64,000 nt of DNA from Prorocentrum cordatum (Eukaryota), in the NCBI GenBank assembly GCA_963575745.1, contig CAUYUJ010000019.1:1-64000 (forward strand). Reading direction: 5' to 3'. Shown here piece by piece: positions 31,913 to 61,927 of this stretch (the stretch's first letter is position 1; the number at the start of each line of letters is the position of its first letter). Both the position numbers and the translations under genes were made by a program. The notes below the pieces were generated by a model. The model ran no database searches. It worked only from the letters and a program-made list of their open reading frames with translations, and was not told the origin of the DNA.

Positions 31913-32615
31913 GAGGCTACAGTGCTGCTGGGGACAGCAATCGATTTCGAGACATCAGGCGCATCCGCCTGCGAAGAGCAGAGTTCGGAACTCGTGTGCT
32001 GCCCGAATTAGGTCTGCGAAATTACTGTATTGTTGGAGTGATCCTGAGAGGTGCTGTCAGTTTTCTGCACTCAACTCGGGCTGTAGGGGGGCTGCAGGGC
32101 TGGTAATGATAGAAGTCGACTCGCAGACATCAGACGCGTCCGCCTGTCGCATTCAGAGGACACAAAATATTTACTATGAGTCGGAATGTTGGTAGGTCCT
32201 CGGTGTTCTCAACTTCAGTCGAGCTGGAAGCTCTACGAGTCTCCCGGCGGTAACCAAGGTTGACGGTTTACCGCCGGCGTCCAGTGGTATGAGAGATAGA
32301 GGAATTCGGCGACAGGGTGGAGCTAGTTGGCGAAATTTCGACAAGAGACACCATCATACCATCCGCGGTCTGGCTCAGCCGATTTTCAAGCTCTAACCAT
32401 TCGTTTAGGCTGATAATTGCGCAGAACGAAGCTTTGTACCACAGAAGTTGCCTCTCAAATTCTCAGCTCATTCCGTCGACAAATTCTTCTCAGCGAAGCC
32501 AGAAACCAGACTTCAGATTGCCATAAAAAAATGAAAAATTAAAGGTTTAAGCATATCTACTGCGAACTGTTTCGATTATGGGCGCTCTTAAGGGAGAGGA
32601 GCTCTACGAGGTTCC

Positions 32616-32624
32616 TGGCTCAAG
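32616..32624 (+). other. Relic dinoflagellate spliced-leader 3' end (TGGCTCAAG) at the LINE 5' junction
   Basis: Exact match to the last 9 nt of DCCGTAGCCATTTTGGCTCAAG, located precisely at the insertion boundary. Confidence 0.65.
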
Positions 32625-32804
32625 GGCTCCTGGATCCCACAGGGGCTCAGGGGGTGTCGGCGTCGCGGGGAAGCGACGCGGCGGCCATCGCCGCCATCGA
32701 CGAGTACGGCATCTTCCAGGCAAGCTAGGCCGCCTGCTTTGTGTGCTGTAATTGTTGTTGTTTTGCTTGTCGTGTGTGCAACGACGGACGGGTACGACTT
32801 TTCA

Positions 32805-34355
32805 ATGCTTGCTAGACGTTTCCAGCTGGAGGATATTTCCCCGACTGTACCTTATTTGCAGTACTCACAGGATTTCGGACAGAGACCAGATTCTGCTGTG
32901 GAGAGAGCGTCTCGGAAGAGGCAAATTCAGGATACCGAGCAAATTGTACGTGACCTTCCACTGGACGGGAGATTGAATACGGCCGACTCCACACCAGATA
33001 GTGATAGTCATTGTGTTGTCCCATCTTCATTTGTGAATATGAATACAGGACTCATGAATATGATGCAGACTCCTTCCAACGCAACTGTGGCGGGAAATGC
33101 AATCAACGGAGGGCGTGTGGGAGGGGCTCCAGCAGGTCAGGTCAATCCTGGAGGTCAAGGATCTGGAGGCGCTCCTGTTGTTCCTAGAGGCCCAGCTCCA
33201 CAAGGTGCTCTAGGGGGACCCCCAGGTATGCCCACGGAGGCACAACAAGCGGCGGCCCAAGCGGCTGTTGTCCCTGAAGGTGTTGGAGAGCGTCAGGGTA
33301 TGCAGGGCGTTAGCGACGACGCCCAACGAAATGTCAAACATCGTGTCAACGGTCCTCAGGAGGCACTCTTGGGGGAACTCGAGGAGAAACGAACGAAACT
33401 CAGTGTGGTCTCGGATGAGGCCCCATCCTGGTTCAAGGCCTTCGCGGAGCTCAACGTACTCGAGAGCAAAGTTAGGCAACAAGAAAACGTCGAAATTAGG
33501 GCCGACATTCAGAGCATCTCGAACCGTCAGGAGGCCTCCGACATCAGGATGAACAACTTGGAACGACAGATGCAGGACCTCAAGAAGAACCCCAGTGTGA
33601 TATCAGGTGCTGCCTCGACCACGGCACCTTCCTACGGAGGGGGCCCACCAGGACTCTCGGGACCATCCAGCTTCAATCCCAGCTATGTGGAGCTCACAGG
33701 CTGGACTGACTGGAACGGGACAGCGGTTACACGTTCGGCCAGTATGATGAGAGACACGGACGCTGCACAATTCATCACAAATCTGAAGACGGCCATCGCT
33801 GCAGAGGATGAAGCTAGGATCGATTACGAGGGCACATTACGTATGAATGGAAGTAGAATGATGTTGAGTACGATCAAAATCAAATTCATTGTAGGAACCG
33901 ACTCTTCGACACTATACAACGTGAAGCGTGCTTTTGATGATGCTCTAACTCCGAATCCCCAGAGGAATGCGGCTCAGGTTTCGAGGTCACCTCCAGACTA
34001 TGACAGCATGTTCCAGGGCATGTTACAACGACCCAGTCGGGTCCGAGTACGTATAGAAGCTCCACCATGGAAACGTGATCATATCGGAGCTGTGGGACGC
34101 TTCTACGGGACATACCGTGAGTGTACCAACAGTGAGGCCATGGAGATCAGGGGGGAGACAGGATCGGGACCCAACGGACGGAGCACAATGTGGACCAAGC
34201 CGCAGGATCCTCAGCATCGACCCGTGGAACTGGCATCCTTTCGTATCAATACGGGGTGGACAGTGGACCGCGAGATCTGGGAGGGTGTACTTATGCGCAG
34301 CGGTGTGACGACGACATACGACACATTTGTTGCGAGTCTTGCCGGCAGGGTGTGA
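32805..34355 (+). CDS. LINE ORF1 protein (Gly/Pro-rich region, predicted coiled coil, C-terminal globular domain)
   Basis: Long ORF (open from 32739, first ATG 32805) upstream of ORF2. Heptad-like segment ISNRQEASDIRMNNLERQMQDLKK. True start uncertain. Confidence 0.75.
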   Translation: MLARRFQLEDISPTVPYLQYSQDFGQRPDSAVERASRKRQIQDTEQIVRDLPLDGRLNTADSTPDSDSHCVVPSSFVNMNTGLMNMMQTPSNATVAGNAINGGRVGGAPAGQVNPGGQGSGGAPVVPRGPAPQGALGGPPGMPTEAQQAAAQAAVVPEGVGERQGMQGVSDDAQRNVKHRVNGPQEALLGELEEKRTKLSVVSDEAPSWFKAFAELNVLESKVRQQENVEIRADIQSISNRQEASDIRMNNLERQMQDLKKNPSVISGAASTTAPSYGGGPPGLSGPSSFNPSYVELTGWTDWNGTAVTRSASMMRDTDAAQFITNLKTAIAAEDEARIDYEGTLRMNGSRMMLSTIKIKFIVGTDSSTLYNVKRAFDDALTPNPQRNAAQVSRSPPDYDSMFQGMLQRPSRVRVRIEAPPWKRDHIGAVGRFYGTYRECTNSEAMEIRGETGSGPNGRSTMWTKPQDPQHRPVELASFRINTGWTVDREIWEGVLMRSGVTTTYDTFVASLAGRV

Positions 34356-34421
34356 CGGTGCAGAGGTGCCAGTCGGGCTGGTGGCCCCACAGCCCAGCAT
34401 AGGCTAGGCACCCAGAATCTT

Positions 34422-36905
34422 ATGAAACAAGGGGCTACAGCAGATCGGGGATTTGCTTGCATGAGGGCACTTCTTTCTCACGGCTGTGAAGTGTTCTGTT
34501 TACAGGAGTGTGAACACTTACCGTCCAATTCAATTCAGCTACTTGGCTGGCACCTAGTTTACTCAAGTGACAGGAAGGCTTCCATAGCTTTGAGGGGGAA
34601 GTCTTGTCACAACATAGTTCGTTCTTGGAGTAATCATGCTCGTCTTGCTATGGTGTGCTTGCGTCATCCGTGTATCTTTCTTGTCTCTGCGTACTTTCCG
34701 AACAGATCGGAGAATCGTTCATTGGAGGTGGCTTTTGAGATGCTGAAAACAATCGAAACAACTTATCGGAGGTGGAAGGAGGAATGCAGATACACTTGCG
34801 AGCTTGTGATTGCAGGGGATTTTAATGTTGAGCTTGCGCCCGACATCACCTGTTCAGGAGGCACGGTGACTGGAGGTGCTGTGCAGATTCTCGACGGGAG
34901 GGGATATGGGAATGATACGGAGGATAGACGGTGGGAGGAGGACATGTGGCGATCTCAGCTGCAGGAGTGGCTGTGTCGGATGCGCTTGCTGGCAGTCAAT
35001 TCTCTTGGCTCGCCGTACTCTCGGCAGCCGACTTTCGTGCATCGTGCGAACAATGCTCGACGCAAGTCTGGGGCGACGACTTTTGCGCCAAAAGTGCTTG
35101 ACTATCTCATGGTCCCACAATCTTGGGAGGGTGACTTGGTTGAATGCCGAACGGATTGGATCCCAGAGACCCCGACTACCAACTTCTCGGATCATGCCTG
35201 TGTCTACGCCGAGTTCCATATGCAGAACCCTCAGGTCACGAAATATCAGGGCCCCCCTAGCCACCACACAAGCCACAAAGAGTTCCAATCGTATCGGGAG
35301 GAGGCCCAATTTCAGGTCCTGGCGGACGTCCAGATCCCGACGGTGCCCCCACAGCGTCTTGCTGAAACGATTGCTGGTCATGCGTTACCGCTCCTCACGG
35401 TGAGGGCCCCCAGGTACTCTCGAGGGCTTCCGCCGAGTAGGACTCCCCAGCATGCCGAGCTGGAGGTACAACTCAGAGAGGCACGTGCTAGGAAGGACAG
35501 AGCGTTGGCTCGGGACCTTCGACGTCGCATCAGACCGCTTGCGCGGGAATATCGCCGACGGAAGGTGGAGTGGGAGGCGCTACCATCTAGGAAGGGGAGG
35601 AGGACACGTGTGACGGAGTTGAGGGTGACGGACACTGGGGGAGGGGATACGGGGCCTACGACTATGATGACGGAGGACAGGGAACTGTGGGCGGAGGAGG
35701 TGGAGCGATATGCTGTGCAGAGTATGACTTGTGATGACTCCAGAGCCCGCAATCGGGAGCTTGTGTCCACACTGCGTCGCCATGCATCTCAATCAACAGC
35801 CTCTTCGGACAACACACTTACGATTACATACTCTACTATTCTGCAGGCGCGGAGCAGGCTCCGATCAGGACGGGCCTGTGGGCCCGACGGCATCTCGGTT
35901 GAACTTCTCAAATCTCTTTCGTGGAGGTCGGTGCGCTCTATCTGTAAGGTTTTCTCTGATATATTCAACGGGCTTCGCCCGACGCCAAGGGAATGGCAGG
36001 AGGTATATCTAACACTTATGCCGAAAACGAGCAAACTGGAGACATTGCGACAAACAAGGAACCTGCTTGTTGGAAATACCTTGGCCAAGTGGTATCTCAC
36101 GTGTGTGACGATTTTACTGGAACGATGTGTGGAACCCTTCATGAGTGATATGGCGATTTACGGTTTTACCAGCGGACGACGCTGCTGGGAGATTTCATCG
36201 GCCATGAAATGTATTGCACAACATGCTTCCACATGGGGGCGAGATCAAACGGCGTGGCTCCTCAGCTGTGACATCGAGCGGGCGTTCGACGCTGTGACGT
36301 TGCCGACAGTCTCGAGAGCGATGACGGCCCTTGGGATCAGTGCACGGTTACAGTATGCGTTATTGGAGCCTCTCTCATCTACATCATGCACGGTGCTGTT
36401 TGAAGGAGTGACAATCCCTAACGTGCAATGGGATAGGTCGCTCCGTACTGGGGGTACCGAATCACCGATCGCGTTTACTATTGTCACTATTGCTATGTGG
36501 CGGGATGTGATTGCTCGCCTGGACCAGCGCGGCGTCGGAGTCGAGATGCCATGCCATGATGATCATTGCCGGTATGCACGTTGGAATCACGCGCTCTGGG
36601 CTGACAACATTTTCCTGGCCGCCAAGTCAGCATCGGAGGCGCAGTTAGCGGCCACTGCCTTCACTACTGCTCTCAGGGATTGGGGGATGGAGTGGAAGGA
36701 GGAGAGTCTAGAGATGATGGTGTGTGGTACTCAGTACACTGATACGGTCACGGTTCAGATTGGCTCGCGGACTGTTCCTTTCAAGCGTGTTGACAGTTTG
36801 AATGTGCTGGGGTATCAGATTCCCAGGAGTTTCACTTCTGTTCACACGGATGTGCAGGAGCGCATCCAGCAGGCCCGAAGGGCATTCTTTGCGCAGGTGC
36901 AATAG
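34422..36905 (+). CDS. LINE ORF2, N-terminal part: APE endonuclease + reverse transcriptase
   Basis: APE motifs CLQE, SAYFP, IAGDFN, LDYL, FSDH. RT motifs GPDGI, DIERAFDAV, LRTGGTESP, WADNIFL, LNVLG. The frame is open from 34356 and includes the APE N-terminal LGTQNL. Ends at in-frame TAG 36903-36905. Confidence 0.9.
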   Translation: MKQGATADRGFACMRALLSHGCEVFCLQECEHLPSNSIQLLGWHLVYSSDRKASIALRGKSCHNIVRSWSNHARLAMVCLRHPCIFLVSAYFPNRSENRSLEVAFEMLKTIETTYRRWKEECRYTCELVIAGDFNVELAPDITCSGGTVTGGAVQILDGRGYGNDTEDRRWEEDMWRSQLQEWLCRMRLLAVNSLGSPYSRQPTFVHRANNARRKSGATTFAPKVLDYLMVPQSWEGDLVECRTDWIPETPTTNFSDHACVYAEFHMQNPQVTKYQGPPSHHTSHKEFQSYREEAQFQVLADVQIPTVPPQRLAETIAGHALPLLTVRAPRYSRGLPPSRTPQHAELEVQLREARARKDRALARDLRRRIRPLAREYRRRKVEWEALPSRKGRRTRVTELRVTDTGGGDTGPTTMMTEDRELWAEEVERYAVQSMTCDDSRARNRELVSTLRRHASQSTASSDNTLTITYSTILQARSRLRSGRACGPDGISVELLKSLSWRSVRSICKVFSDIFNGLRPTPREWQEVYLTLMPKTSKLETLRQTRNLLVGNTLAKWYLTCVTILLERCVEPFMSDMAIYGFTSGRRCWEISSAMKCIAQHASTWGRDQTAWLLSCDIERAFDAVTLPTVSRAMTALGISARLQYALLEPLSSTSCTVLFEGVTIPNVQWDRSLRTGGTESPIAFTIVTIAMWRDVIARLDQRGVGVEMPCHDDHCRYARWNHALWADNIFLAAKSASEAQLAATAFTTALRDWGMEWKEESLEMMVCGTQYTDTVTVQIGSRTVPFKRVDSLNVLGYQIPRSFTSVHTDVQERIQQARRAFFAQVQ

Positions 36906-38672
36906 TTTACGTGCAGGGCGTTGCCTCTGGTGAAGAAGTTTCGTCGATATCAATCGACTGTGCAGAGCCGCCTTTTATATGCAGCAGAGGCCATCACGAT
37001 TGACAGTGAGTGTGTGAGGGTTATCCATGCGTTCGAGGGTATGTGTCTTCTGAGAATGTCAGGGAGGAGGAAGCCAGGAGATGTGGGGTGGGAGGTTTGG
37101 CGGCCAGCTGCACTGACACGAGTCAGGACAATCTTCTGCGATGGGGGTTTCCCGTCGGCTGTGCAGATGCTGTGTTGGAAGAGCTGGGGCATGATGCGCT
37201 CCACGAGGCAATATTTACTATCCTTGGAGGAGGACAGGACGGCAAGGACGGAGGTTGAGGTGGAGGGATCAACGACTCAACGTGCTAAACGTGTCCGCTT
37301 TACGGATGGACGTGGGGAGGATGTACCTGCTGCGACTGTGATGGAGGTGGAGGGGAGGATTACGGACATGGAGAGGAGGCTGGAGGATCTCTGCTCGCAG
37401 GTCGCCTGTTCCATTGCCCGCTCACAGCCGATGCCCTGTGGGGAGGGAGCTGCCCACACTCTCAGAGACGAGCCGCTTGCCGTCTCAAAGGGGAGGAGGG
37501 CCTTTCGAGACTCCCGACGTGCGCTTATGATGTACAATGTTGGCTGGGTCACGGCTCGCGACACAATAACAGAGGTTCTACGACAACACGGCAACAGGGC
37601 CTTATCTAGTTCGGGCAAACGGCTTCGTGGAGGCCCTGTGTCTGTGGGCGGACGGTCTTGGCAGTTCCCATACATTCAGTTCTTTGGGGAAAAGTGGTGG
37701 GAGTCTGTACGGGGTGATTGGGTTCAATTCTTGGAGGTATGGAAGCAACTCCTTATACAATACAACAAATCTAAGGTCTATGATTACTTTGTGGTGTCTT
37801 GGAAGGGCTCTCCTAATGGACCTCGAGGCTCCCCTGAGGCTCGTGAGAAGGCCGATACCGAGATGGTCGATACCGCGACCAACCCTCTGCACCCCAAGTA
37901 TGACCCCAAAGAGTCCGACAAGCTTGCAATACGATATGCGATGATCCAGGAACGTGCGACTGTGTGGGACATATCGTCAGAGGGTTTTGCTGCTGAGTTC
38001 AAGGGTGACTCACTACTTATCTGCTCCTGGCTCCAGGGTAAATGGAGATGTGAGAATCGTGGCTACTGCAAGAGGACAGCTGCCATGATTGATTGTACCT
38101 TTGAGCTTGCTGCGTGTTTCAATCTGAGGCCTGCTGCCTTGGGACGTGAGATATGGAGACACGAATTCAGGGAGGACAATACACGAGCGGATGAATTGAC
38201 GCATGAGGCCAGATGTGGCCGCACATTCTACAGAACTCATTGTTATCTATATCCATTCGAAACTTATCTCGTACCGTTCGCTATCAGGGGAGGCTTTGAT
38301 GGCGGGGTTGACCAGCAAGGATCAGGATGTGGTTTCTGGCTTCAGATCGGCTTAATCAATACTCAGTGCAATCCCAGTGAGATAGGCATCGCTTCCGCGA
38401 GAACCGTGGGCCCCTTCCCTGCTGGGCATGAGTTTGCTGTTTCTAGTGCCGTGCCCCTCGTTTGGAGGGATGTGGCCGAGGCCGCGTGGCTCCTCGAAGG
38501 AGCTACAGTCACAGAATGTGAATTGTCGGCAGCCGAAGCGCTGCTTAGCGCTGCCCGTGTGCTTCTGCGGGACCGGTCCTCGCCCAGCTGCACTCAGCTG
38601 GGAACGCGAGTCCAAACAAACAAAACAAACCAGGTTGACGTTCACCGCCGGCGCCAGTTGCTGGAAGCATAA
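36906..38672 (+). CDS. LINE ORF2, C-terminal part (same frame after one TAG): RT thumb/connection + RNase H-like domain
   Basis: Same frame as 34422 (AQVQ*FTCRALPLVKKF). RNase H motifs KGDSLL, HEFREDNTRADEL, FDGG..GSGCG, TVTECELSAA. Probably one ORF broken by a nonsense mutation or base error. Confidence 0.8.
   Translation, partial: FTCRALPLVKKFRRYQSTVQSRLLYAAEAITIDSECVRVIHAFEGMCLLRMSGRRKPGDVGWEVWRPAALTRVRTIFCDGGFPSAVQMLCWKSWGMMRSTRQYLLSLEEDRTARTEVEVEGSTTQRAKRVRFTDGRGEDVPAATVMEVEGRITDMERRLEDLCSQVACSIARSQPMPCGEGAAHTLRDEPLAVSKGRRAFRDSRRALMMYNVGWVTARDTITEVLRQHGNRALSSSGKRLRGGPVSVGGRSWQFPYIQFFGEKWWESVRGDWVQFLEVWKQLLIQYNKSKVYDYFVVSWKGSPNGPRGSPEAREKADTEMVDTATNPLHPKYDPKESDKLAIRYAMIQERATVWDISSEGFAAEFKGDSLLICSWLQGKWRCENRGYCKRTAAMIDCTFELAACFNLRPAALGREIWRHEFREDNTRADELTHEARCGRTFYRTHCYLYPFETYLVPFAIRGGFDGGVDQQGSGCGFWLQIGLINTQCNPSEIGIASARTVGPFPAGHEFAVSSAVPLVWRDVAEAAWLLEGATVTECELSAAEALLSAARVLLRDRSSPSCTQLGTRVQTNKTNQVDVHRRRQLLEA
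38583..38628 (+). other. LINE 3' stem-loop and (CAAA)n tail
   Basis: Perfect 8-bp stem CCCAGCTG-cact-CAGCTGGG, followed 10 nt later by CAAACAAACAAAACAA. Confidence 0.7.
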
Positions 38673-41600
38673 GAGTACCTCGTAGAGCTCTTCGTCATCG
38701 ATGAGCTAGAGGAATTCCGGCGCGGGGTGGAGCTAGTTGGCCCAGCCGGCCGAGGCGGGCTGGAGAGCTAGTTGGCAAGAAAAATCTCGACGGAACTTTT
38801 GATGACTTTTGCTCGGTTGAAAATTTCGTTCTCGAAATTTGACAATTCGTTAGAGCTCTAGTATTTTTTCCCGTGATATTCGATCTTATTCCCGCTCTCC
38901 ATCTTGATCTCAGCTCGATCGGGTAACTTTGAAGGCCAAAAAGCACTCTGGCGGGAACGGCCGTTTCGAGTCATCTTGATACGCGCTGTCGGTTTTCTGA
39001 ACATAACTCGAGCTCTAGGGCAGCTACAGAGCTGGTAAGCACAGCTAATGCATGCAGAATGATCAGGCGCGTTCGCCTGTTGAACCCAGAGGTCTGAACT
39101 CGGTCTGTCAGCCGAGCTAGGTCCGCAAACCTGTTTGTATTATTCGAGTGAACTTGATACGCGTTTTCGGTATTTTCTACTTAACTCGAGCTGTAGGGCA
39201 GCTACAGTGCTGGTAAGCACTGCTATCGCTCTCAGAATAATCAGACGCGTTCGCCTATTGAATCCATAGGTCTAAACTCGGTCTGCTAGCCGAGCTAGGT
39301 CCGCAAACCTATTCGTATTATTCGAGTCAACTTGATACGCGTTGTCGGTATTTTCTACCGAAATCGAGCTGTAGGTCAGCTACAGTGCTGGTAAGCACAC
39401 CTGCCACACTCAGAATCATCAGGCGCGTTCGTCTGTTGAATCCAGAGCTCTGAATTCAGTCTGTTGCGCGATCCAGAATCACGAAACTGTTCGTATTCTT
39501 CCAGTCATCTTGAGAGCTATTGTCGGCGTTCTGCACTTAATTCGGACTGTAGGGAGGCTGCAGGGCGGGTAATCACAGGAATCGATTCGGAGACATCAGA
39601 CGCGTCCGTCTGTCGCATTCGGAGGTCTGAACTCGGTCTGATACTCGAGTTGCGCTGAAAAACTATTCGTTCTCTGCAATTTTTTCCGACAGTATATGTT
39701 GTCAGGAAGCTCTACGAGTCCCCCGGCGGTAACAAAGGTTGACGGTTTACCGCCGGCGCCCAGTTGGGGTGGTTTTGCGATTTTTTGAAAGATATTTGAC
39801 AATTCATTTTGAGAAAGCAGATTTTTACTCCGAGCATTGACATATAAACTTTGTTTCCTGAGCAGCTCAGCTCTCTAGAGCCATTTTTAGCACCAGTTCA
39901 CTTGGAGGAACCAACTTCATGTTGACTCCGAAAAATCTTAACTTGAAGTTTTTGTAGAAAAGCTCCCAGAAGCTCATGCTTTGGTGCTGAGCTTTCTCAC
40001 GGATACAAGGAGCTTCTCGGCGGTGACCAGGTTGACGGTTTACCGCCGGCGCCAGTAATTCCGGAGCGCTGGAGAGCTAGTTGGCAAGAAAACTCTCGAC
40101 GGACCTTTTGCTGACTTTGGGTCGGTTGAAAATTTTGTTCTCGAAATTTGAATATTCGTTAGAGCTCTAGTATTTTTTCCCGTGACATTCGATCTTATTC
40201 CCGCTCGCCATCTCGATCTGAGCTCAATCGGGTAACTTTGAAGGTCAAAAAGCGTCCCGGCGGGAACGGCCGTTTCGAGTCATCTTGATACGCGCTGTCG
40301 GTATTTCGTACTTAACTCGAGCTGTAGGGCAGCTACAGAGCTGGTAAGCACAGCTATCGCACTCAGAATTATAAGGCGCGTTCGCCTGTTGAATCCAGAG
40401 GTCTGAACTCGGTCTGCCAGCCGAGCTAGGTCCGCAAATCTATTCGTACTATTCGAGTCATCTTGATAGACACTCGGTTTTCTATACTTAACTCGAGCTT
40501 TAAGGCAGCTACAGTGCTGGTAAGCACACCTATCGCACTCAGAATCATCGCGCGCGTTCGCCTGGTCAAACGAGAGGTCTGAACTCGGTCTGCTAGCCGA
40601 GCTAGGTCCGCAAACCTATTCGTATTATTCGAGTCATCTTGATAGACGGTTTTCTGTATTCAACTCGAGCTGTAGGGCAGCTACAGGGTTTGTTGTGACA
40701 GACATATATGGGGAATCATGAGTCGCGTCCGTCTATGGAACCGAGAGCTCTGAACTCGGTCTGCTAGCCGAGCTAGGTTCGCGAAGCTGTTCGTATTGTC
40801 CGAATGATCTTGAGACGTGCTCTCAGTTTTCTGCACTTAACTCGTGCTGGGGGAGAGCTACAGTGCTGCAGGTCACATCTATCGATTTGCACACATCAGG
40901 CGCGTCTTTCGGTCGATTCCAGAGCTCGGAACTCGGTCTGCTGCTCGAACTAGGTTCGCAAAACTATTATATTATTCGAGTCGATACTGTCGCTTTTCTG
41001 CACTTAACTCGGGCTGTAGGGGGGGCCTTACGAGTAATTCGCTAGTTGGCTCGAAAAAAAAACTGAACCTTTTACAACTTTTGGTCGGTTGAAAATTTTG
41101 TTCTCGAAATTTCAACATTCGTTAGAGCTCTAGTATTTTTTCCCGTGATATTCGATTTTATTCCCGCTCGCATCTTGATTACAGCTCGATATGGTACCTT
41201 TTATTGTGAAAAAGCACACTGGCGGAATCAGCCGTTTCGAGTCGTCTTGATACACGACGTCGGTATTTTGTACTTAGCTCGAGCTGTAGGACAGCTACAG
41301 AGACTACAGTCACAGAAATCGATTAAGACTTATCGGGCGCGTTTGTCTGTCGTATCGATAGGTCTGAACTCGGTCTGCTAGCCGAGCTAGGCCCGCTCAT
41401 CGATTCGTATGATTCGCGCTGTCGGTATTTTCTACTTAACTCGAGCTGCAGGGCAGCTACAGTGCTGTTGAGCACGCCTATCGCGCACAGAATCGTCAGG
41501 CGCGTTCGCCTGTTGAATTTATAGGGCTGAACTCGGTCTGCTAGCCGAGCTAGGTCCGCAAACCTATTCGTATTATTCGAGTGAACTTGATACGCGTTTT

Positions 41601-43188: not shown

Positions 43189-43411
43189 TGAGGAGCACAC
43201 GCCCACCTCCGCGGTCCAGGATCCGCAGCGCCCTGCCGGAGGTTGCAGCGGGTCCGGGAACGTGGCTTCCTAGCGTTTCCCAACTTTGTCCCCGCAGCGC
43301 CCTGCCGGAGGTTGCAGCGGGTCCGGGAACGTGGCTTCCTAGCGTTTCCCAATACGCGTGACTCCAGGGTGCGCGAAACGCTTTGGCAGAGCTTCGGAAG
43401 AGCTCCGACAG
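43189..43411 (+). repeat. Family D fragment with an internal ~60-bp tandem duplication
   Basis: CCGCAGCGCCCTGCCGGAGGTTGCAGCGGGTCCGGGAACGTGGCTTCCTAGCGTTTCCCAA occurs twice. Inverse match to about 17930-18075. Confidence 0.7.
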
Positions 43412-43572
43412 TAACTCGTAGAGCTTCCCTTAGCAAGTTATTGCTGGAAGCTAAGAGTAATTCCGGGGCGCTGGAGAGCTAGTTGACAAGAAAAATCTCG
43501 ACGGACCTTTTGGTGACTTTTGGTCGGTTGAAAATTTGGTTCTCGAAATTCGACAATTCGTTTGAGCCCTAG

Positions 43573-46900: not shown

Positions 46901-47388
46901 GTCCGTTCGTCGAACCGAGAGCTCGGAACTCGGTCTGTTGACGAGATCTGCGAACCTGTTGTATTATTCGAGTCATCCTGAGAGGTACTCTCGGTTTTCT
47001 GCACTTAACTCAGGCTGTATGTGGGGCTGCAGAGCTGGTAATCACAGCAATCGATCCGCAGACATCAGCCGCGTCCGCCTGTCGCAATCAGAGGTCTTAA
47101 CTCGGTTTCATACTCGAGCTCGATTGGAAAACTGTTCGTTTGTTTTGTTAGAGTCATCTTGAGAGGTCTATAATCGCTTGGGCTGAAACACTAGTCGTTC
47201 TCTGAAATTCTTTTCCACATTATAGATTGTCAGGAAGCTCTACGAGTCCCCCGGCGGTAAGAAAGGTTGACGGTTTACCGCCGGCGCCCAGTACCTCGTA
47301 GAGCTCTTCGGCATCGATGAGCTAGAGGAATTCCGGCGCGGGGTGGAGCTAGTTGGCCGACCCGGCCGGGGCGGACAAAGTGGCAACT

Positions 47389-48451: not shown

Positions 48452-48738
48452 TCTGGGTGGTTTTGCGAATTTTTGAAAGATATTTGACAATTCAGATTTT
48501 TCGCACCTGTAAACGAATATGAGAGGCTCTCTGTCTTAATATGAGCTCGCTAGGTGCACTTTTACTATCAAACCACTTGGCGCAACCATCTTCGTATCGA
48601 CATGAAAAAAATCATGTTTTCTCTTTTTCGAGATGCTTCCAGAAGCCCTCTCGTTTGATGCTGAGCACTCCTACGCGTGCTAGGAGCTCTGCGAGGTTCC
48701 CGGCGGTGACCAGGTTGACGGTTCACCGCCGGCGCCAG

Positions 48739-48955
48739 TTCGGAGCTCTGGATTCGAGGCGGACGCGCCCCATGTCTTCAAATCGATGTCTGTGACCACC
48801 AGCACTGTAGCTCCCCTTCAGTGTGAGTTCAGTGAGGTCGGGTTGAGAGCTCTGAACTCGACAGACGGACGTAACTGGTGATTCTTAATCGGTTCCTGTA
48901 AACAGCAGCTCTGTAGCTGTCCTACAGCTCGAGTTAAGTATAGAAAAACAAGAGT
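48739..48955 (-). repeat. Inverted fragments of the 178-bp monomer
   Basis: CAGCTCTGTAGCTGTCCTACAGCTCGAGTTAAGTA and CAGCACTGTAGC are reverse complements of monomer motifs. Confidence 0.75.
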
Positions 48956-51900
48956 TACGGTGACTCGTAGAGCTTCCCCAGGCTAGTTGCTGGAATCTCA
49001 AGAGTAATTCCGGCGCGCTGGCGAGCTAGTTGGCTCGAAAAAAAAGAACTGAACTTTTCAGACCTTTTGGTCGGTTGAACATTTTGTTCTCGAAATTCGA
49101 ACATTCGTTAGAGCTTTAGTACTTTTTCCCGTGATATTCGATCTTATTTCCGCTCGCCATCTTGATCTCAGTTCGATCGGGTATCTTTTACTGCGAAAAA
49201 GCACACTGGCGGGATCGGCCGTTTCGAGTCATCTTGATACGCGTTGTCGGTAATATGTACTTAACTCGAGCTGTAGGGCAGCTACAGTGCTGGTAAGCAC
49301 ACCTATCGCACTGAGAATCATTAGCCGCATTCGCCTGTTGAATCCATAGGTCTGAACTCGATCTGCTAGGCCGAGCTAGGTCCGCAAACCTATTCGTATT
49401 ATTCGAGTCAACTTATTACGCGTTGTCGGTATTTTCTAATTAACTCGAGCTGTAGGGCAGCTATAGTGCTGGTAAGCACACCTATCGCACTTAGAATCAT
49501 CAGGCGCGTTCGCTCGTTGAATCCATAGGTCTGAACTCGGTCTGCTAGCCGAGCTAGGCCTTGATACGCGTGGTGGGTATTTGTACTTAATTCGAGCTGC
49601 AGGGCAGCTACAGAGCTGGTAAGCACGTCCATCGCATTGAGAATCATCAGGCGCGTTCGCCTCTTGACTTCAGAGGTCTGAACTCGGTCTGCTAGCCGAG
49701 CTAGATGCGCAAATCTGCTCGTATTATTCGAGGCATCTTGACAAACGTTCTCGGTTTTCTGTAGTTAACTCGAGCTCTAGGGCAGCTACAGAGCCTATAG
49801 TCACAGAAATCGATTGGAATTATCGGGCGTGTGTGTCTGTTGTATCGAGAGCTCTGAACTTGGCCTGCTGCCCGAGCTAGGTTCGCGAAACTATTCGTAT
49901 TGTCCGAATCACCGTGAAAAGTGCTCTCAATTTTCTGCACTTAACTCGTGCTGGGGAGGGCTACAGTGCTGCGGGTCATAGAAATCGATTTGCACACATC
50001 AGCGTTCGTCGGTCGATTCGAGAGCTCAGAACTTGGTCTGCTGCTCGAAAGAGGTCCGCGAAACTATTGTATTATTCGAGTTATCCTGAGATATGCTGTC
50101 GGTTTTCTGCACTTAACTCGGGTTGTAGGGGGGCTGCAGGGCTGGAAATTACATGAGTCGATTCGCAGACATCCGCCTGTCGCATTGAGAGGTCTGAACT
50201 CGGTCTGATACTCGAACTGGGTTGCGAAACTGTTTGTTTTTTTGTTAGAGTGATCTTGAGAGGTCTGAAATCGCTTGGGCTGAAAACTAATCGTTCTCTG
50301 GATTTTTTCCCACACACTATACTGTCAGAAAGCTCTACGAGTCCCCCTAACAAAGGTTGACGGTTTACCGCCGGCGCCCAGTCTATAATAATACGAATGC
50401 GTTCGGCTGTTGCATCCGAGAGGCGAAATTGCTTGGGCTGAAAAACTTTTTTTTCTGTTTAATTTTTTTCGACATAATTCGTAGAGCTTCCCTCAGCAAG
50501 TAGTTGCTGGAAGCTAAGAGTAATTCCGGCGCGCTGGAGAGCTAGTTCGCTCGAAAAAAAAGAACTGAACTTTTCACAACTTTTGGTCGGTTGAAAATTA
50601 TGTTCTCAAAATTTGAGAGCTCTAGTATTTTTTCCCGTGATATTCGATCTTATTCCCGCTCGCCATCTTGATCTCAGCTCGATCGGGTACCTTTTACTGC
50701 CAAAAAGCACACTGGCGGGATCGGCCGTTTCGAGTCATCTTGATACGCGTTGTCGGTATTTTGTACTTAACTCGAGCTGTAGGACAGCTACAGCGCTGGT
50801 AAGCACAGCTATCGCACTCAGAATGATCAGGCGCGGTCGCCTCTTGAATCCATAGGTCGGTCTGCTAGCCGAGCTAGGTCCGCAAACCTATTCGTATTAT
50901 TCGAGTCAACTTGATACGCGTTGTCGGTATTTTCTACTTAACTCGAGCTGTAGGGCAGCTACAGTGCTGGTAAGCACACCTATCGCACTCAGAATCATCA
51001 GGCGCGTTCGCCTGTTGAATCCACAGGTCTGAACTCGGTCTGCTAGCCGAGCTAGGTCCGCAAACCTATTCGTATTATTCGAATCAACTTGATACGCGTT
51101 GTCGGTATTTTCTACTTAACTCGAGCTGTAGGGCAGCTACAGTGTTGTAAGCACACCTATCGCACTCAGAATGATCAGGCGCATTATTCTGTTGAATCCA
51201 TAGGTCTGAACTCGGTCTGCTAGCCGAGCTAGCTCCGCAAACCTATTCGTATTATTCGAGTCAACTTGATACGTGTGGTGGGTATTTTTCACTTATTCGA
51301 GCTGCAGGGCAGCTACGGTGCTGGCAAGCACACCTATCGCACTCAGAATCATCAGGCGCGTTCGCCTCTTGACTCTAGAAGTCTGAACTCGGTCTGCTAG
51401 CCGAGCTAGGTCCGCAAATCTATTCGTATTATTCGAGTCATCTTGAGAAACGCTCTCGGTATTTTCTGTACTTAACTCGAGCTGTAGGCAGCTACAGAGC
51501 CTACAGTCACAGAAATCGATTGAGAATTATCGGGCGCGTTTTCAATTTTCTGCACTCGTGCTGGGGGAGGGCTACAGTGCTGCGGGTCATAGAAATCGAT
51601 TTGCACACATCAGGCGCGTTCGTTGGTCGATTCGAGAGCTCAGAACCTGCTCTGCTGCTCGGAACAGGTCTGCGAAACTATTATATTATTCGAGTCATCC
51701 TGAGAGATGCTGTCGGTGTTCTGCACTTAACTCAAGCTGTAGGGGCTGCAGGGCTGGTAATCACATGAGTCGATTCGCAGACATCAGACGCCTGTCGCAT
51801 TGAGAGGTCTGAACTCGGTCTGATCAGACGCGTCCGCTTGTCGCATTCAGAGGCCAAAAAATATTCACTATGAGTCAGAATGTTGGTTGGTGCTCTCGGT

Positions 51901-53323
51901 TTTCTCAACTTAAGTCGAGCTTGGAAGCTCTACGAGTTCCCCGGCGGTAACCAAGGTTGACGGTTTACCGCCAGCGCCCAGTTATATGTTGTCAGGAAGC
52001 TCTACGAGTCCCCCGGCGGTAACAAAGGTTGACAGTTTACCGCCGGCGCCCAGTTAGCAAGGAAAATCTCCACGGACCTTTTGGTGAGTTAGAGCTCTAG
52101 TATTTTCCCGTGATATTCGATCTAATTTCCGCTCGCCGTCTTGATCTCAGCTCGATCGGGTACCTTTTACTAGCCAAAAGCACACGGGCGGGATCCGCTG
52201 TTTCGAGTCATCTTGATACGTGCTGTCGGTTTTCTCAAGATTACTCGAGTTTTAGGACAGCCACAGAGCTGGTGGGCCCAACTAATCGATTCAGAATGAT
52301 CAGGCGCGTTCGTCCGATGAACCCAGAGGTCTGAACTCGGTTTGCTAGCCGAGCTAGATCCGCAAACCTATTCGTATTATTCGAGTCATCTTGACAGACG
52401 CTCTCGGTTTTCTGTATTAACTCGAGCTACAGGACAGCTACAGAGCTAATACGTACAGAATCTGATTCAGAATCATCAGTGGCCGTTGTCTGTTGAATCC
52501 AGAACTCGGTCTGCTGCCCGATCTAGAATCGCGAAACTATTCGTATTGTTCGAGTCATCTAGAGAGATGCTGTCGGTTCTCTGCACTTAACTCGGGCTGT
52601 GGGGGGGCTGCATGGCTGGTAATCACTGGAATCGATTCGAAGACATCAGGCGGTCTCGCCTTTCGAATCCAGAGCTCCAAACTCTGTCTGCTGGCGAAAC
52701 TATTCGTATTGTTCGAGTCATCCTGAGAGGTACTGTCGGTTTCCTGCACTTAATTCGGGCTGTAGGATGGCTACATAGCTGCTTATCACAGGAATCGATT
52801 GCGAGACATTAGACGCGTCCGCCTGTCGCATTCAGAGGTCTGAACTCGGTCTGATACTCGAGCTAGGTTTGCCAAACTATTCGTATTGTTCGAGTCATCT
52901 TGAGAGGTGCCGTCGATCTACGCACGTAACTCGGGCTGTAGGAGAGCTACGGAGCTCGTACAGAAGACAATCCAGAAGCATCGGTGGCGTTCGGCTGTTG
53001 CATCCGAGAGGTCTGAAATTGCTTGGGCTGAAAAACTATGTTTTCTGTGTAATTTTTTCGAAATTATATGTTGTCAGGAAGCTCTACGAGTCCCCCGGCG
53101 GGCCACTTCGGCGACTTCGGCTGCCTGCACTTGTTTGCGGCATTTGTTTGCTTCCCGAGGCAAGCAGGCCGCCTGCACTTGTTTGCGGCGTCAGGGAGTC
53201 ACACGTTTGTCGCCTAGAGTGATATTGCACTGCCTTTCATTTGACACGTTTGATCGCCTTGAGTGGTCTTCAATTGATTTGTTTTGCTGGGTGCTTCCGA
53301 GGCAGTCTCTGCAATCTTTCGCT

Positions 53324-54513
53324 ATGCCACACGTACGGGGTGCGAGTGCTCGCATTATGCGTCGGGCGCTGGCTGTTCAAAACGGATACTGTGTGCATTC
53401 ACCTGTTCGTTTGCCTCTGGAAGGTTTGGTGCCACCTACGTGTCTCCCACCACCAGGGCTGGAACGGACGACTGCCGATTTGGTTCTAGATTATCTCTTG
53501 TTGCGCGATCCACCTGTTGTTAGATACAGTTTGGAGGAGGAGGAGGCTGCCATTACGACCGTTTCGGGGAATCTTTCTTGCCGTATGCTTCAAGCCAAAT
53601 ATCCATGTGCCCCTTCGGCAAATGCTGGAGTGCTGGCTGCTGATTCCGTGTTTGATGTTGGATTGCAGACTCGGTATAATCATTTGGAGGTGGAGCAAGC
53701 TGCCGTTGCGACACTCTCGGACAATTTTTCTTGCAGTTTGATGCGGGAGGAGGTTGGTCAGGGATTCGGAGGCGATCAGTTCTCTCAGATGATGGTGGTT
53801 TGCCCACGGGTCTCTTCGGTAGATATTGGAGTGCAGGCTTCTTCTAGTATGGATGTTGCGGACTCTCATTGTGAAGTCGGCTGTCAGACAGAGAGTGTCG
53901 TTGGGATGGAGGGAGGAGCTTCCGGAGTTCTTCTTGGGAAAGTGACCGTGGCGGCGGAGGAGGAGCTGGAGGCGCCCTCGAGTGCGGAGTCTTCTCCGAA
54001 CGTGCAGTCTGATTCCGATAGCCGCGCCTTGTCAGGTGCGTCCCAGGGGTGTCTGAATCGTCCCGTCACACGCTCGTCGTGGCATCGAACCCTGGCTGCA
54101 AGAACGAGGAGGAGGAGAATGTTCATATTGAAGCTGTTGCTCAGATGGAGCAGGAGGAGGTGGCTCAGGAGGATTTTCGCCTGTACCTGGAGAAGGCGCT
54201 AAATCTTCGTATCAGAAAATACAGATTTGTACGGACGACTGCTACGGACGACGTCGTGTCAACGGTGCACGTGCCAGATTTCCTTTCTGAATTTCGAGCC
54301 TGCGATGAGGACGAACGGGACTGTTGGATTTGGGATGCGTTCCAAACCTTCAGGGATCACGATTCAATCGAAGCCGTCTTACATGACCTTCAGCAGGTTA
54401 TGGACAGTGCTGCCCAGCCGTCTGCTCTTGTGAAAGAGGCGAAACACCTCTATGACAACTTTATGGAATTATGTGAATTGCAGAGCAGCGGAGAGCTTGA
54501 TGGAATTATTTGA
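53324..54513 (+). pseudogene. Unknown protein-coding-like cargo (two overlapping frames, 53324-54202 and 54049-54513)
   Basis: Long ORFs with an internal duplicated peptide (LEEEEAAITTVSGNLSC / LEVEQAAVATLSDNFSC) and an acidic tail. No recognised domain. Confidence 0.35.
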
Positions 54514-54756
54514 ATTGACTACGCATGCTTCTGTTGTGTTTGTCCCTTCCTCTCCCCCGCTGTTTCTGCCCCTGGGCTCGCTTTGGCTCCTTGGGCTTCC
54601 CTGCTCCCCGCTTGCTCTCCCTTTGGCTCCCCGCTGGCTGGACTCATCAGAGCTACAGGCCGTGCTGTTCGTGTTGCTATCAGTTCATGTATCAGTGTTC
54701 TGACTTCATATATTTACGACAACAGAGACATTGTATCAGACGTATCCGTGGAGGAT

Positions 54757-55128
54757 CGTGGGAGGCCAGAGGTGGCCAAACTATTACTCGCTGGTTTGCA
54801 TATGATAAGTTCCTCAGTACTCGTAAGACTGCTCTCCGTGGTGCATTCGATGGAGGTGTCAGTAATGAAGGATGTGGAGGTGGGTGGTGGCTTCAGATTG
54901 GCGTTGTAGGTAGGGGTTCCAGCGTGCAGGTTGATTTTCCCATCTCCTCCTCCTCCTCCTCCTCCTTCCTCCTGCACCAGCTCGCACAGCTTCCATTGGC
55001 ACGATGTGGCCGAGGAGGCGATGAGCTTGCCTCCTGGTAGCACAGTAACCTGCTGTGAACTAACTGCCTGCGCTGCCCTGACGAGAGCTGCTGCTAAGGT
55101 GGCGTGCGCTCTGCTGCGACCTACCTAA
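54757..55128 (+). pseudogene. Frameshifted remnant of the LINE RNase H C-terminal segment
   Basis: WEARGG..ALRGAFDGG..GCGGGWWLQIG and WHDVAEEA..GSTVTCCELTAC align with HEARCG..AIRGGFDGG..GSGCGFWLQIG and WRDVAEAA..GATVTECELSAA. Confidence 0.85.
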
Positions 55129-55204
55129 GATGGTGGGGGGCTCAGTTGCACTGCTCCGCCGATTCGGATTCGGATTCTAGTGGCGGACCGCAAACCGCAA
55201 AAAA

Positions 55205-58200
55205 AAGAAAGGTTAACAGTTTACCGCCGGCGCCCAATTTTAGATTAGAAGCTGGACGGTGGTGTTGCCCGCCAGCAGGACATCTCCGCCGGTCCAGGAT
55301 CCCCGCAGCGACTTGTAAAACGTCGCAGCGGGCCCGGGAGAGCTTCCGGCAAGCGTCCAAGCGTGCCTGCACGCGTGCAGGCACGCGTGGAAACGTTCCT
55401 GGCAGCACTTCAGAGGCGCTGCACGGGACCCCCCCCGAACTCCGGAAGCGCTTAACGGGAGCAGCGGACGGCCCGCCAGGCAAGTGTTCCGTGCATTCTC
55501 TTTTCTTTCTGGCTGTTTCCGAGCTGGATCCGCGAAACTGTTCGTATTCTATTTCGTAGAGATTCCCTTAGCAAGTACCTCGTAGAGCTCTTTGGCATCG
55601 ATGGGCTAGAGGAATTCCGGCGCGGGGTGGAGCTAGTTGGCCGACCCGGCCCCGACGGACAAAGTGACAACTTTTTGGTGGTTTTCCGAATATTTGAAGG
55701 ATATTTGCTTATTTATTTTCAGTTTTTCGCACCTGTAGACGACTATGAGGGACTCCGCGTCTTAATATGAGCTCTCTAGATGTACTTTTACTATCAAAAC
55801 ACTTGGCGGAACCAACTTTATGTCGACCTGAAAAAAATTATGTTTTCTCTTTTTCAATAAATGCTTCCAGAAGCCCTCTCTTTTGATGCTCAGCACTCTT
55901 ACGCGTGCTAGGAGCTCTACGAGGTTCCCGGCGGTGACCAGGTTGACGGTTCACCGCCGGCGCCAGCTGTTGCTGGAAACCTACGAGTAATTCCGGGGCG
56001 CTGGAGAGCTAGTACCTCGTAGAGCTCTTCGGCATCGATGAACTAGAGGAATTCCGGCGTAGGGTGGAGCTAGTTGGCCGACCCGGCGCAGACAGACAAT
56101 GTGACAACTTTTGGGTGGTTTCGAAAATTTGAAAGATGTTTGACCATATCTTTCGCACCTGTGGACGATTCTGAGGGCCTCTGCGTCTCAATATGAGCTC
56201 TATAGGTGCACGTTTACCGATCGAAGCACTTGTCGAAACCAATTTCATCTTGACATTAAAAAATCATGTTCCTCTTTTTCGAGAAATGCTTCCAGAAGCC
56301 CTCTCTTTTGATGCTGAGCGCTGACTTTTGGTCGAAATTATGTTCTCGAAATTCAACTATTTGTTAGAGCTCTGGTAATTTTTCTGACCATATGTGATCT
56401 TATTCCTGCTCGCCCTCTTAATCTCAGCTCGATCGGGTAACTATTTCCGCGAAAAAGCATCGCGGCGGGATCGGCAGTGTCGAGTCATCTTGATACGCGT
56501 TGTCGGTATTTTGTATTTAATTCGAGCTGTAGGGCAGCTACAGAGCTCATCCTCACAGACATCGATTGCGAATCATCAGACGCGTTCGTCTGTTCCATCT
56601 GGAGGTCTGAACTCGGTCTGCTGCCTGAGCTAGGTTCGCGACACTATTCGTGTTTTTGAAGTCATCTTGAGAGGTGCTGACAGTTTTCTGCACTTGACTC
56701 GGGCTGTAGGGGGGCTACAGGGCTCGCCGAATTCAGAGCTTGGAACTCGGTGTGCTGCCCGAGCTAGGTTCGCAAACTATTTGTATTCGTCGAGTCATCT
56801 TGAGAGGTGCTGTCCGTTTTCTGCACTCAACTCGAGCTGTGAGGGGGCTGCAGGGCTTGTAATCACAAGAATCGATTCTAAGACATCAGGCGCGTCCGCC
56901 TATTGTATTCAGATGTTTGATTTCGGTCTGATATTCGAGCTAGATTCGCGAAATTATTTGTGTTGTCCGAGTGATCTTGAGAGGTGCTGTCGATTTTCGC
57001 ACGTAACTCGGGCTGTAGAAGAGCTACGGAGCTCGTGCGCACAGGAAACGATCCAGAAGCATGAGGGGCGTTTGTTGGATCGAGAGGTCTGAAATCGTTT
57101 AGGCTGAAAAACTATTCGTTCTCTGCAATTTTTTTTCGACATTATATATGCTCAGAAAGCTCTACGAGTCCCCCGGTGGTAAGAAAGGTTGACGGTTTAC
57201 CGCCGGCGCCCAGTTCGAGTAATCTTGAGAGATGCTGTCGGTTTTCTGCACTTAAGTCGGCTGTAGGGTGGCTGCAGGGCTGGTTATCACAGGAATCGAT
57301 TCGGAGACATCAGACGCGTCTGCCTGTTACATTCAAAGGTCTGAACTCGGTTTGATACTCGAGCTAGATTAGCGAAACTATTCGTATTGACGATTGACGC
57401 ACGTCACTCGGGCTGCAGAGCTACAGAACTCGTGCGCACAGAAAACGATCGAGAAGCATCAGGGGCGTTCGGCTGTTCCATCGACGTCTGAAATCGCTTA
57501 GCCTGAAGCACTATTCGTTCTCTGCATTTTTCCGACATTTTATATGGTCAGGAAGCTCTACGAGTCCCCCGGCGGTAAGAAAGGTTGACGGTCTAGCGCC
57601 GGCGCCCAGTTTGAACATACCTCATAGAGCTCTTCGTTATCGATGAGCTAGAGGAATTCCGGCGCGGGGCGGAGCTAGTTGGTCGATCCGGCCAGAAAAG
57701 AAGATGTGATAACTTTGGCTTGGTGTTCCTAAGATTTGAAAGATATTCGACAATTCATTTTGAGAAAGCAGATTTTTCGCACCTGTAGAGGACTATCAGG
57801 GCCTCTGCGTCTCAACATGAGCTGTGTAGGCACACTTTTACTATTTAAACACGTGGCGAAAACAACTTCACGTTGACATGAAAAATATTAATATTGATTT
57901 TCTCCAGAAGCTCTCCGCTTCGATCCTGAGCTTTCTTGCGTGTGCAAGGAGCTCTACGAGGTTTCCGGCGGTGACCAGGTTGACGGTCCACCGCCGGCGC
58001 CAGTATTGCCAGGCGTCTCGCAGCAAATTTTGAAAATGAGGGCTCCGAGCGAGGAGGCGGAGTTGCGATGGAGCTGTCAGGCGACTCCGTGCTGATACCA
58101 ACTGGATGAGGAAAAGATGGAATTGCAATAAGAATATATACCGATCGCAGGTGGGGGAGGTTATTGATCTGTTAGACGATGCCTGTCGAAATTTTAAGCT

Positions 58201-61827: not shown

Positions 61828-61927
61828 TGATGAAATATGCCTGCGTGCCGCGTGTATGCGTAGACATTCCTTGACTATCCGTGGGCCCTGTTGGGCTCAA
61901 GTGCGATGCGAGCATAAAAGCTTGTCA
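61828..61927 (+). repeat. Putative 5' LTR (100 bp)
   Basis: Begins TGATG, ends TTGTCA, immediately followed by the PBS. The 3' LTR is not in the window, so this is unconfirmed. Confidence 0.65.

Follow-up and report, generated by a model that had tools for sequence, protein, structure and literature searches.

A candidate target-specific LINE lineage in the 3' palindrome of an arrayed Helentron-like transposon of Prorocentrum cordatum

Can a retrotransposon specialize on the terminus of another transposon? The question is raised by a 64-kb stretch of the Prorocentrum cordatum genome (positions 1 to 64,000 of contig CAUYUJ010000019.1, the window hereafter) which, according to self-comparison and Tandem Repeats Finder, consists nearly entirely of a head-to-tail array of ~55 Helentron/HINE-like units of 1-1.4 kb. 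Two insertions related to long interspersed nuclear elements (LINEs), denoted L1 and L2, interrupt the 3' palindrome of two of these host units. A preliminary description of this DNA had proposed a LINE family specialized on that hairpin. The answer reached here is a qualified one: on balance, a LINE lineage with an apurinic/apyrimidinic endonuclease-like (APE-type) domain probably inserts preferentially into the 3' palindrome of this abundant, arrayed, non-autonomous Helentron/HINE-like transposon.

Insertion junctions in the host palindrome

All host units lie on the + strand, and their 3' module consists, in this order, of a subterminal inverted repeat (subTIR), GCTCTACGAG, 3-6 nt, a palindrome of the form CCGGCGGT(A/G)A ... 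loop ... T(T/C)ACCGCCGG, and the terminus CGCC(C)AGT. The insertions are read against intact modules of two host subfamilies, A and B:

13360..13413, + strand: reference intact B-type 3' end (subTIR, 10+2-bp stem, loop, terminus); DNA fold -15.2 kcal/mol, z -2.05
8818..8872, + strand: reference intact A-type 3' end; DNA fold -13.4 kcal/mol, z -1.86
32601..32619, + strand: left half of the B-type host of L1, subTIR GCTCTACGAG followed by GTTCC(T)GGC; other host copies align up to 32619
32616..38629, + strand: L1, full-length LINE insertion, unique in self-BLAST
38613..38629, + strand: tail of L1, CAAACAAACAAAACAAA
38630..38658, + strand: right half of the B-type host of L1, through the 3' terminus (CCAGGTTGACGTTCACCGCCGGCGCCAGT); one consensus G is absent
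53081..53101, + strand: left half of the A-type host of L2 (GCTCTACGAGTCCCCCGGCGG)
53102..55206, + strand: L2, decayed insertion
55207..55238, + strand: right half of the A-type palindrome that hosts L2, with three G>A changes

The flanks of L1 read GAGGTTCC(T)GGC / L1 / (A)CCAGGTTGACGTTCACCGCCGG, where the intact B-type counterpart has ...CCCGGCGGTGACCAGGTTGACGGTTCACCGCCGG; those of L2 read CCCCCGGCGG / L2 / (AA)GAAAGGTTAACAGTTTACCGCCGG (for the right flank, (AA)GAAAGGTTAACAGTTTACCGCCGGCGCCCAAT is also given), where the intact A-type counterpart has ...CCCCCGGCGGTAAGAAAGGTTGACGGTTTACCGCCGG. The 3' junctions of the two insertions are located at the top of the palindrome's left arm, no more than ~3 nt apart, the 5' junctions lie 1-9 nt upstream of the 3' junction position, and both elements are on the + strand, that is, in the orientation of the host. 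Neither insertion is accompanied by a target duplication: ~4-9 nt of the target were lost at L1 and 1-4 nt at L2, and the microhomology between tail and target amounts to 1-2 nt in both cases. The comparison with intact A- and B-type units bears out the original claims that two different, related insertions occupy the same spot of the hairpin in the same orientation, and that there is no target-site duplication, only a small deletion (1-9 nt). The 3' junctions had been placed within ~1 nt of each other; the shared spot stands, with the two junctions read here as within ~3 nt, and the microhomology of the tails to the downstream target, although present, is just 1-2 nt long.

The boundaries originally given, 32616-38628 and 53102-55204, agree with the self-BLAST coverage, in which 32332-38628 and 53102-55204 are non-repeated, but the ends are ambiguous. 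The 5' end of L1 falls within 32616-32620, because the host CCCGGC may continue with C>T at 32616; should that T have arisen by mutation of the host C, L1 would start at 32620. Contigs of sequencing runs X6 and X3 start exactly at 32616. The 3' ends are ambiguous by 1 nt in L1 (38628/38629, shared A) and by 2 nt in L2 (55204-55206, shared AA). The tail of L1 varies in length, with a 5-nt deletion in a contig of run X6 and another frame in the relative P0171, a predicted protein.

The coding content of the two insertions is as follows:

32805..34355, + strand: open reading frame (ORF) 1 of L1, 516 codons from the first ATG to an in-frame stop, with a coiled-coil-like middle
34422..38669, + strand: ORF2 of L1, with one internal TAG at 36903-36905
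34467..35195, + strand: APE-type endonuclease domain, motifs QE, GDFN and SDH intact; Pfam Exo_endo_phos E 0.0079, below the cut-off
36117..36821, + strand: reverse transcriptase (RT) domain; Pfam RVT_1 E 7.6e-13
37908..38600, + strand: C-terminal RNase H-like domain, apparently permuted, GDS...REDNTRAD followed by FDGG...T.TECEL
54762..55206, + strand: LINE-homologous 3' part of L2, with the FDGG...EL half, a frameshift, a stop, a 3' untranslated region (UTR) and an A8 tail

L1 is a nearly intact LINE of ~6 kb, with a 5' UTR of ~190 nt and one frame, 32592-38672, that contains two in-frame stops. The TAG at 36903-36905, which corresponds to Tyr in four relatives, is the sole disabling change in ORF2; this ORF has no stop ahead of the tail, and its frame passes through the tail into the host flank. 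Judged by its sequence, the inserted element is an APE-type LINE, in line with the original proposal, given the APE motifs, the RVT_1 match and the alignment of a clade profile to human L1 ORF2p, from the endonuclease through the RT, with E 4.6e-16, the best solved match of ORF2. For ORF1 of L1, the open frame of L2 and the ORF2 linker, no family was found in Pfam or Atlas, and with regard to a clade label, a further database search returned nothing beyond generic clusters of LINEs.

The relatedness of L1 and L2 claimed previously is real but restricted to the last ~460 bp and a 5' motif. Over these ~460 bp, the protein relatedness is detected by tblastn (E 2e-10) and by profiles (E 3.6e-11 and 2.4e-08), and of the 1323 positions of the clade profile, only 1218-1308 match L2. 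The 5' motif, 37 nt long, is common to the 5' UTR of L1 and the first 90 nt of L2 (about 53151-53186), with a score of 39 compared to 18.2 +/- 2.4 for shuffled sequences (reached by 0 of 500). Given the match of profile positions 1218-1308 only, together with the 5' motif shared with L1, a simple 5' truncation is ruled out, and L2 has the appearance of a non-autonomous relative, internally deleted or chimeric, in which both ends are preserved. L2 is the older insertion, with three G>A changes in its flank, a frameshift and a stop. The 5' 1.6 kb of L2 (53102-54740) overlaps a 432-codon open frame (52904-54202) without similarity to ORF1 of L1; it may be an ORF1 that has diverged, or may have been acquired by transduction or from the partner of a template switch.

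In an array this repetitive, with some units duplicated at 95-99% identity, L1 and L2 might be conceived as a single ancestral insertion that was copied along with the array, by duplication or gene conversion, or as an assembly artefact. This we consider highly improbable: apart from short motifs, L1 and L2 are not similar at the nucleotide level, and the protein segments that can be aligned are ~36-43% identical, a divergence that contradicts duplication of one event; they sit in hosts of different subfamilies (B and A, respectively) and differ in junctions and tails; and L1-like sequence with the tail is present in four independent sequencing runs.

The Helentron-like host

The host sequence accounts for ~85% of the window. 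Tandem Repeats Finder detects a 178-bp tandem repeat, in 2-13 copies, inside nearly every unit. With at most one mismatch allowed, the anchor GCTCTACGAG has 55 matches on the + strand, one of which is a chance match inside L1, so the hairpin counts rest on the remaining 54 anchors; on the - strand there are 24 inverted copies, 1-3 nt from the 5' ends of units. The subTIRs are 14-15 nt long, and the two members of the inverted pair change together between subfamilies: 5' ACTCGTAGAGCTTCC and 3' GGAAGCTCTACGAGT in type A, 5' ACCTCGTAGAGCTC and 3' GAGCTCTACGAGGT in type B.

The palindrome, located between the 3' subTIR and the terminus (the distance from subTIR to terminus is ~45 nt), is the best conserved part of the unit. 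Both arms are present at 50 of the 54 anchors, the exceptions being those of L1 and L2 and those at 50332 and 58853, and the stem co-varies by subfamily (TAA/TTA in 34 units, TGA/TCA in 11). Folded as single-stranded DNA, the 3' module has a stem of 10-12 bp and a loop of 9-14 nt (z from -1.9 to -3.3). High conservation together with the co-varying stem makes the palindrome a stable, multicopy target.

PMC4067079 names as hallmarks of Helentrons and HINEs central tandem repeats, a 3' palindrome and subTIRs, of which the 3' one is 38-60 bp and the 5' one a few nt away from the respective end. The host units possess subTIRs of 14-15 nt, where 12-15 bp is expected, with the 5' copy 1-3 nt from the unit end, a stem-loop between the 3' subTIR and the terminus, which are ~45 nt apart, and the central 178-bp tandem repeats. 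By structure alone, the host therefore fits the description "Helentron-like", and the preliminary description is sustained on this point. The likeness to Helentrons and HINEs such as DINE-1, as characterized in PMC4067079, covers the subTIRs (13-15 nt, the 5' one 1-3 nt from the terminus), the 3' palindrome, the central tandem repeats and the high copy number; oyster HINEs with satellite-like repeats, described in PMC7492417, are a further comparator. Unlike these elements, the host units are arranged head to tail, with variable 5' starts, and no Rep, helicase or endonuclease partner is seen in the window (no Rep/helicase gene was present in the ORF list, which covered 30-57 kb only). The units abut each other (...CCAGT|T... 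or ...CCAGT|A...), so that a T-T insertion target is unreadable inside the array. The unit that follows ...CCAGT is in some cases full-length, 5' subTIR included, and in others truncated, again with variable 5' starts. The AT skew is ~-0.1 and constant across 60 kb of the window.

Specificity for the palindrome

With a target interval of ~330 nt, ~55,900 nt of non-LINE sequence and one of two orientations, uniform insertion gives p ~0.003 for a second event at the same position, given the first. Both LINE copies in the window that retain an intact 3' end (2 of 2) are at the palindrome site, and they represent different LINE families in hosts of different subfamilies. In addition, four more of the ~55 hairpins are damaged by a deletion or by filler, with a break inside the same stretch of ~12 nt:

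27018..27035, + strand: hairpin with a 3-nt deletion (TAA) right after CGGCGG, the spot of the 5' junction of L2
50342..50356, + strand: hairpin that has lost 5 nt (GGCGG) from its upper left arm
19200..19246, + strand: hairpin that lacks ~20 nt, from the subTIR to the loop, and has a TTT filler
58853..58905, + strand: C-type hairpin broken after CGGCGGTTAC, with ~95 nt of host replaced by a 28-nt filler, TC-T8-(CTT)n

The right break of the hairpin at 19200-19246 (~19220) adjoins the position of the LINE 3' junctions, and the filler at 58853-58905 may be the scar of an antisense reverse transcription that started at a nick in the top strand and was aborted. Elsewhere in the module, only one deletion of at least 3 nt was found, at 59485. 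The four lesions may be scars of the endonuclease or of aborted insertions, or else may reflect instability of the palindrome.

Evidence from outside the window comes from predicted proteins which, because the L1 frame runs through the tail, can report junctions. An exhaustive phmmer search with ORF2 identified 1792 relatives (a word-index protein search with the same query gave no match); a few of the relative fragments are labelled Pyramimonas sp. CCMP1952 in EukProt, and cluster look-ups of 10 more distant relatives gave no name. Among these external relatives, the C-termini of two fit the site and that of one does not. P0171, 98% identical to L1, ends in ...VQTKQKPG, and P0179, which is 45% identical and belongs to a different family, the same as a Pyramimonas-labelled fragment, ends in ...PQNRKIPG. 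Both endings would represent tail-coded residues followed by Pro-Gly-stop, as expected from CCA GGT TGA of the B-type loop CCAGGTTGA. The metagenome locus L001 (53% identity) ends within the A-rich tail and thus has no flank, a search of shorter proteins added 4 fragments, none of which reaches the junction, and collections of genome contigs and viral contigs contained no match to the protein profile or to two host patterns.

In sequencing runs, L1-like sequence was found in 20 of the 24 listed runs, from 14 studies. Toward the 3' end of L1, the depth increases by a factor of 8 to 30 in two of four runs (from 176 to about 1400-1900 in X8 and from 54 to ~1760 in X20), as would be the case for a multicopy, 5'-truncating LINE. 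One contig of X6 (record 24) leads from the L1 3' end, with a 5-nt shorter tail, into CCAGGTTGACG, a weak link with 12 aligned nt past the junction. Joints 32619>38640 represent other intact host copies, not necessarily an empty allele. A G insertion at 38639 was considered as a full-depth link between the LINE and the hairpin and was dropped, there being no bridging contig and a tail depth of 7 in X8.

Several observations weigh against a dedicated target. Only two complete junctions are seen as DNA, and under a 31-nt rule, no contig from four runs bridges the 3' junction of L1. With ~85% of the window occupied by the host, any preference for a GC motif would land in host sequence; ~45 of the 259 GGTRA sites are in left arms, so that if this motif alone were recognized, p would be ~0.17 and the coincidence not significant. 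Copies of the arm sequence CGGCGGTRA number 42 on the + strand and 50 on the - strand, so that orientation specificity would need recognition of the loop or the flank, and two events in the same orientation do not establish such specificity. P0171 and P0179 are known from protein alone, P0171 perhaps from this very locus in a different assembly; the GPG ending of P0180 may be a natural C-terminus, given that its relative P0003 ends in PPGC; and in P0178 (62% identical), the post-tail peptide RYFLLNSSSR matches the 178-bp repeat of the host (E 0.03), not the palindrome. Finally, the window contains a third fragment of the LINE clade that adjoins an intact B-type host 3' terminus and is outside any palindrome:

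58016..58426, + strand: L3, scrambled LINE-clade fragment with the GDS...RE half (profile E 3.5e-13)

L3 has an FDGG-like motif on the - strand and lacks a LINE 3' end; it is a rearranged LINE remnant. The earlier statement that only two events are visible holds for complete junctions, with L3 to be added outside the hairpins. L3 is flanked on both sides by AGTATTGCC.

Taken together, these points invite the explanation that the LINE has a weak preference for a short motif or base composition, and that the coincidence of L1 and L2 merely reflects the abundance of the host repeat and of the motif, which the host flank depth in X8, up to ~300 times the LINE depth, the share of the host in the window, the GGTRA-only estimate and the flanks of P0178 and L3 would all accommodate. 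We nevertheless hold this explanation to be unlikely: there are 145 GGTRA sites on the + strand outside palindromes, and neither insertion used any; the Pro-Gly-stop endings of P0171 and P0179 imply that the downstream loop sequence is shared as well; and the small lesions cluster at the insertion spot. The hairpin specialization that was originally proposed is thus supported by 2 of 2 copies, the four lesions and the C-termini of two relatives, and opposed by P0178, L3 and the GGTRA-only p of ~0.17.

Under preferential insertion into the palindrome, the nick made by the ORF2 endonuclease would fall in the bottom strand where the left arm reaches its top, across from GGTGA^CCAGG (B type) or TAAG^AAAGG (A type); both this strand order and the assignment of specificity to the endonuclease are conjectural. 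The freed 3'-OH would then prime reverse transcription on the A-rich, (CAAA)n-like tail through 1-2 nt of pairing, and the top strand would be cut 1-9 nt upstream, after CCGGC or CCGGCGG, an offset with which a few target bases are lost and none duplicated. Most genomic copies of the LINE should then reside at the palindrome site, with their 3' ends followed by (A)CCAGGTTGACGGTTCACCGCCGG or AAAGGTTGACGGTTTACCGCCGG in one orientation. The LINE would land in a harmless multicopy site, and the insertion, by parting the arms of the palindrome, should inactivate the 3' cis element of that host copy.

The target deletions, in place of duplications, the stem of 10-12 bp with a loop of 9-14 nt, and the damage by deletion or filler at this point of other hairpins would also be expected of a fragile site, at which the LINE RT makes use of pre-existing nicks in the extruded or processed palindrome without a sequence-specific endonuclease. 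Such nicks could originate from hairpin or cruciform extrusion, the Helentron Rep/endonuclease or structure-specific nucleases of the host cell. The breaks seen here are asymmetric: they fall in the upper left arm, away from the loop centre and from the element terminus, the expected place of Rep cleavage. Along with the intact APE catalytic motifs of the LINE and the same orientation of L1 and L2, this makes lesion-primed insertion rather improbable, and we retain preferential insertion guided by the LINE endonuclease as the reading of these junctions.

The LINE clade and known target-specific elements

Two features of ORF2 set this clade apart. Motif C of the RT is WADN in L1 (LWADNIF, 36594-36614), aligned with FADD of human L1 ORF2p; among the clade members inspected, 11 of 13 have ADN and 2 of 13 have ADD. 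The second feature is the C-terminal RNase H-like domain, which is kept in the full-length relatives examined (5 in one set and 7 of 8 in another). Its first half, GDS...H.(F/Y)RE.N.RAD, aligns to residues 70-134 of the 140-residue RNase H1 3u3g (profile E 0.032; in the structural comparison, VIA Z 3.9 with 26% identity) and weakly matches RVT_3 positions 63-121 (P0174, E 0.22). The second half, (F/Y)DGG...G.G, with three strands and a helix containing T.T..EL, has no independent match. In the AlphaFold2 (AF2) model of the domain (pLDDT 83.9, pTM 0.81), the order of secondary structure elements is swapped, so that the canonical RNase H order (beta1-3, alphaA, beta4, alphaB-E) is not seen in the LINE domain; the D/E residues of the putative catalytic tetrad (D, E, D, D) are invariant or nearly so across the clade. 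In a Foldseek search of PDB with this model, nothing reached E <= 0.001, the best-scoring VIA entries (Z 5.6 and below) belong to unrelated folds of the alpha/beta type, and no Pfam RNase_H or RVT_3 match reached threshold for 8 sequences searched with E up to 10 or for 12 with E up to 0.01. The domain apparently fits a circular permutation of RNase H, albeit with a second half that lacks an independent match. Swapped RNase H-like halves were also observed in P0003, P0004, P0019, P0169, P0027, P0031, P0038, P0055, P0073 and P0129.

Target-specific LINEs are known for genes of rRNA, snRNA, tRNA and spliced leader, for microsatellites, for telomeres and for one class of DNA transposons, the latter exemplified by Tx1L, which is inserted in Tx1D of Xenopus. 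ORF2 of Tx1 ends in a CCHC motif and is not known to include RNase H, and an RNase H-like domain is not a known feature of either Tx1 or R1. Other site-specific LINEs, of rDNA and telomeres, are R1, TRAS and SART of the R1 clade and R2 of the RLE type (defined by a restriction-like endonuclease), and plant L1 elements carry an archaeal-type RNase H (Pfam RVT_3). PMC4640811 lists RNA genes, transposons, microsatellites and telomeres as targets of target-specific LINEs and assigns most such LINEs to the early-branched, Tx1 and R1 groups.

The closest parallel is that with Tx1L/Tx2L of the Tx1 clade, likewise APE-type LINEs that use one position and one orientation of a multicopy sequence, which here is another transposon. 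In the present case, however, the LINE occupies neither a cut-and-paste transposon nor an RNA gene but the terminal palindrome of an element of the rolling-circle type, and L1 possesses an RNase H-like domain that Tx1 elements are not known to carry and that speaks against placing L1 in the Tx1 or R1 clade, so the Tx1 likeness of the L1 family should be taken only as an analogy. With R1, TRAS, SART and R2, the family shares precise 3' junctions and a multicopy, 'safe' target, and with R2, the loss of a few target bases rather than a long duplication; it differs in that the target is a parasite, not a host gene, and in the domain set, and there is no evidence here of the co-transcription or ribozyme of R1/R2-type elements. 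L2 parallels the internally deleted non-autonomous derivatives of R2 and R1 whose existence is noted in PMC3414825. As in plant L1 elements with RVT_3, one half of the C-terminal domain matches an archaeal-type RNase H1 (3u3g), but the halves are swapped, no Pfam RNase H family reaches its threshold and motif C of the RT is ADN.

Searches of an open-access library, supplements not included, turned up no LINE described as directed at the terminus of a Helitron or Helentron, and literature searches found no paper on an ADN motif C or a permuted RNase H in a LINE clade. The apparently permuted RNase H and the ADN motif mark a LINE clade that is apparently undescribed in the literature searched, and the family is a plausible new variant of a target-specific LINE with a new class of target. 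If preferential insertion is confirmed, the terminal palindrome of rolling-circle transposons would be a new kind of LINE target, and one selfish element would be specialized on an essential cis signal of another; the LINE would offer a natural sequence-specific APE endonuclease for study, including duplex versus hairpin reading, and the insertions would add to the case for a conserved, functionally exposed 3' palindrome in Helentrons. A far-reaching extension, which we offer as speculation and would not expect to hold in full, is that this protist LINE clade, with its APE, ADN-type RT and permuted, catalytically complete RNase H, is a hyperparasite of Helentron/Helitron2-type transposons: diverged families (L1, L2, P0179) would share the target in the upper left arm, perhaps read as an extruded hairpin, each insertion would destroy a host cis element, and the LINE would gain a safe harbour while acting as a brake on the host transposon.

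Some segments of the window do not belong to the recognizable host units. Directly 3' of host termini, there are two GC-rich non-host segments with internal palindromes, 55242-55569 and 43189-43570, the latter with a 69-bp tandem repeat at 43223-43352; these may be another small element or the 5' region of a long form of the host. The array stops inside the 178-bp repeat, and 61827-64000 is a GC-rich (61%) element with a 548-codon gag-like ORF (62286-63929) that encodes a CCHC zinc knuckle (Pfam E 4.8e-08) and is probably the start of a long terminal repeat (LTR) retrotransposon.

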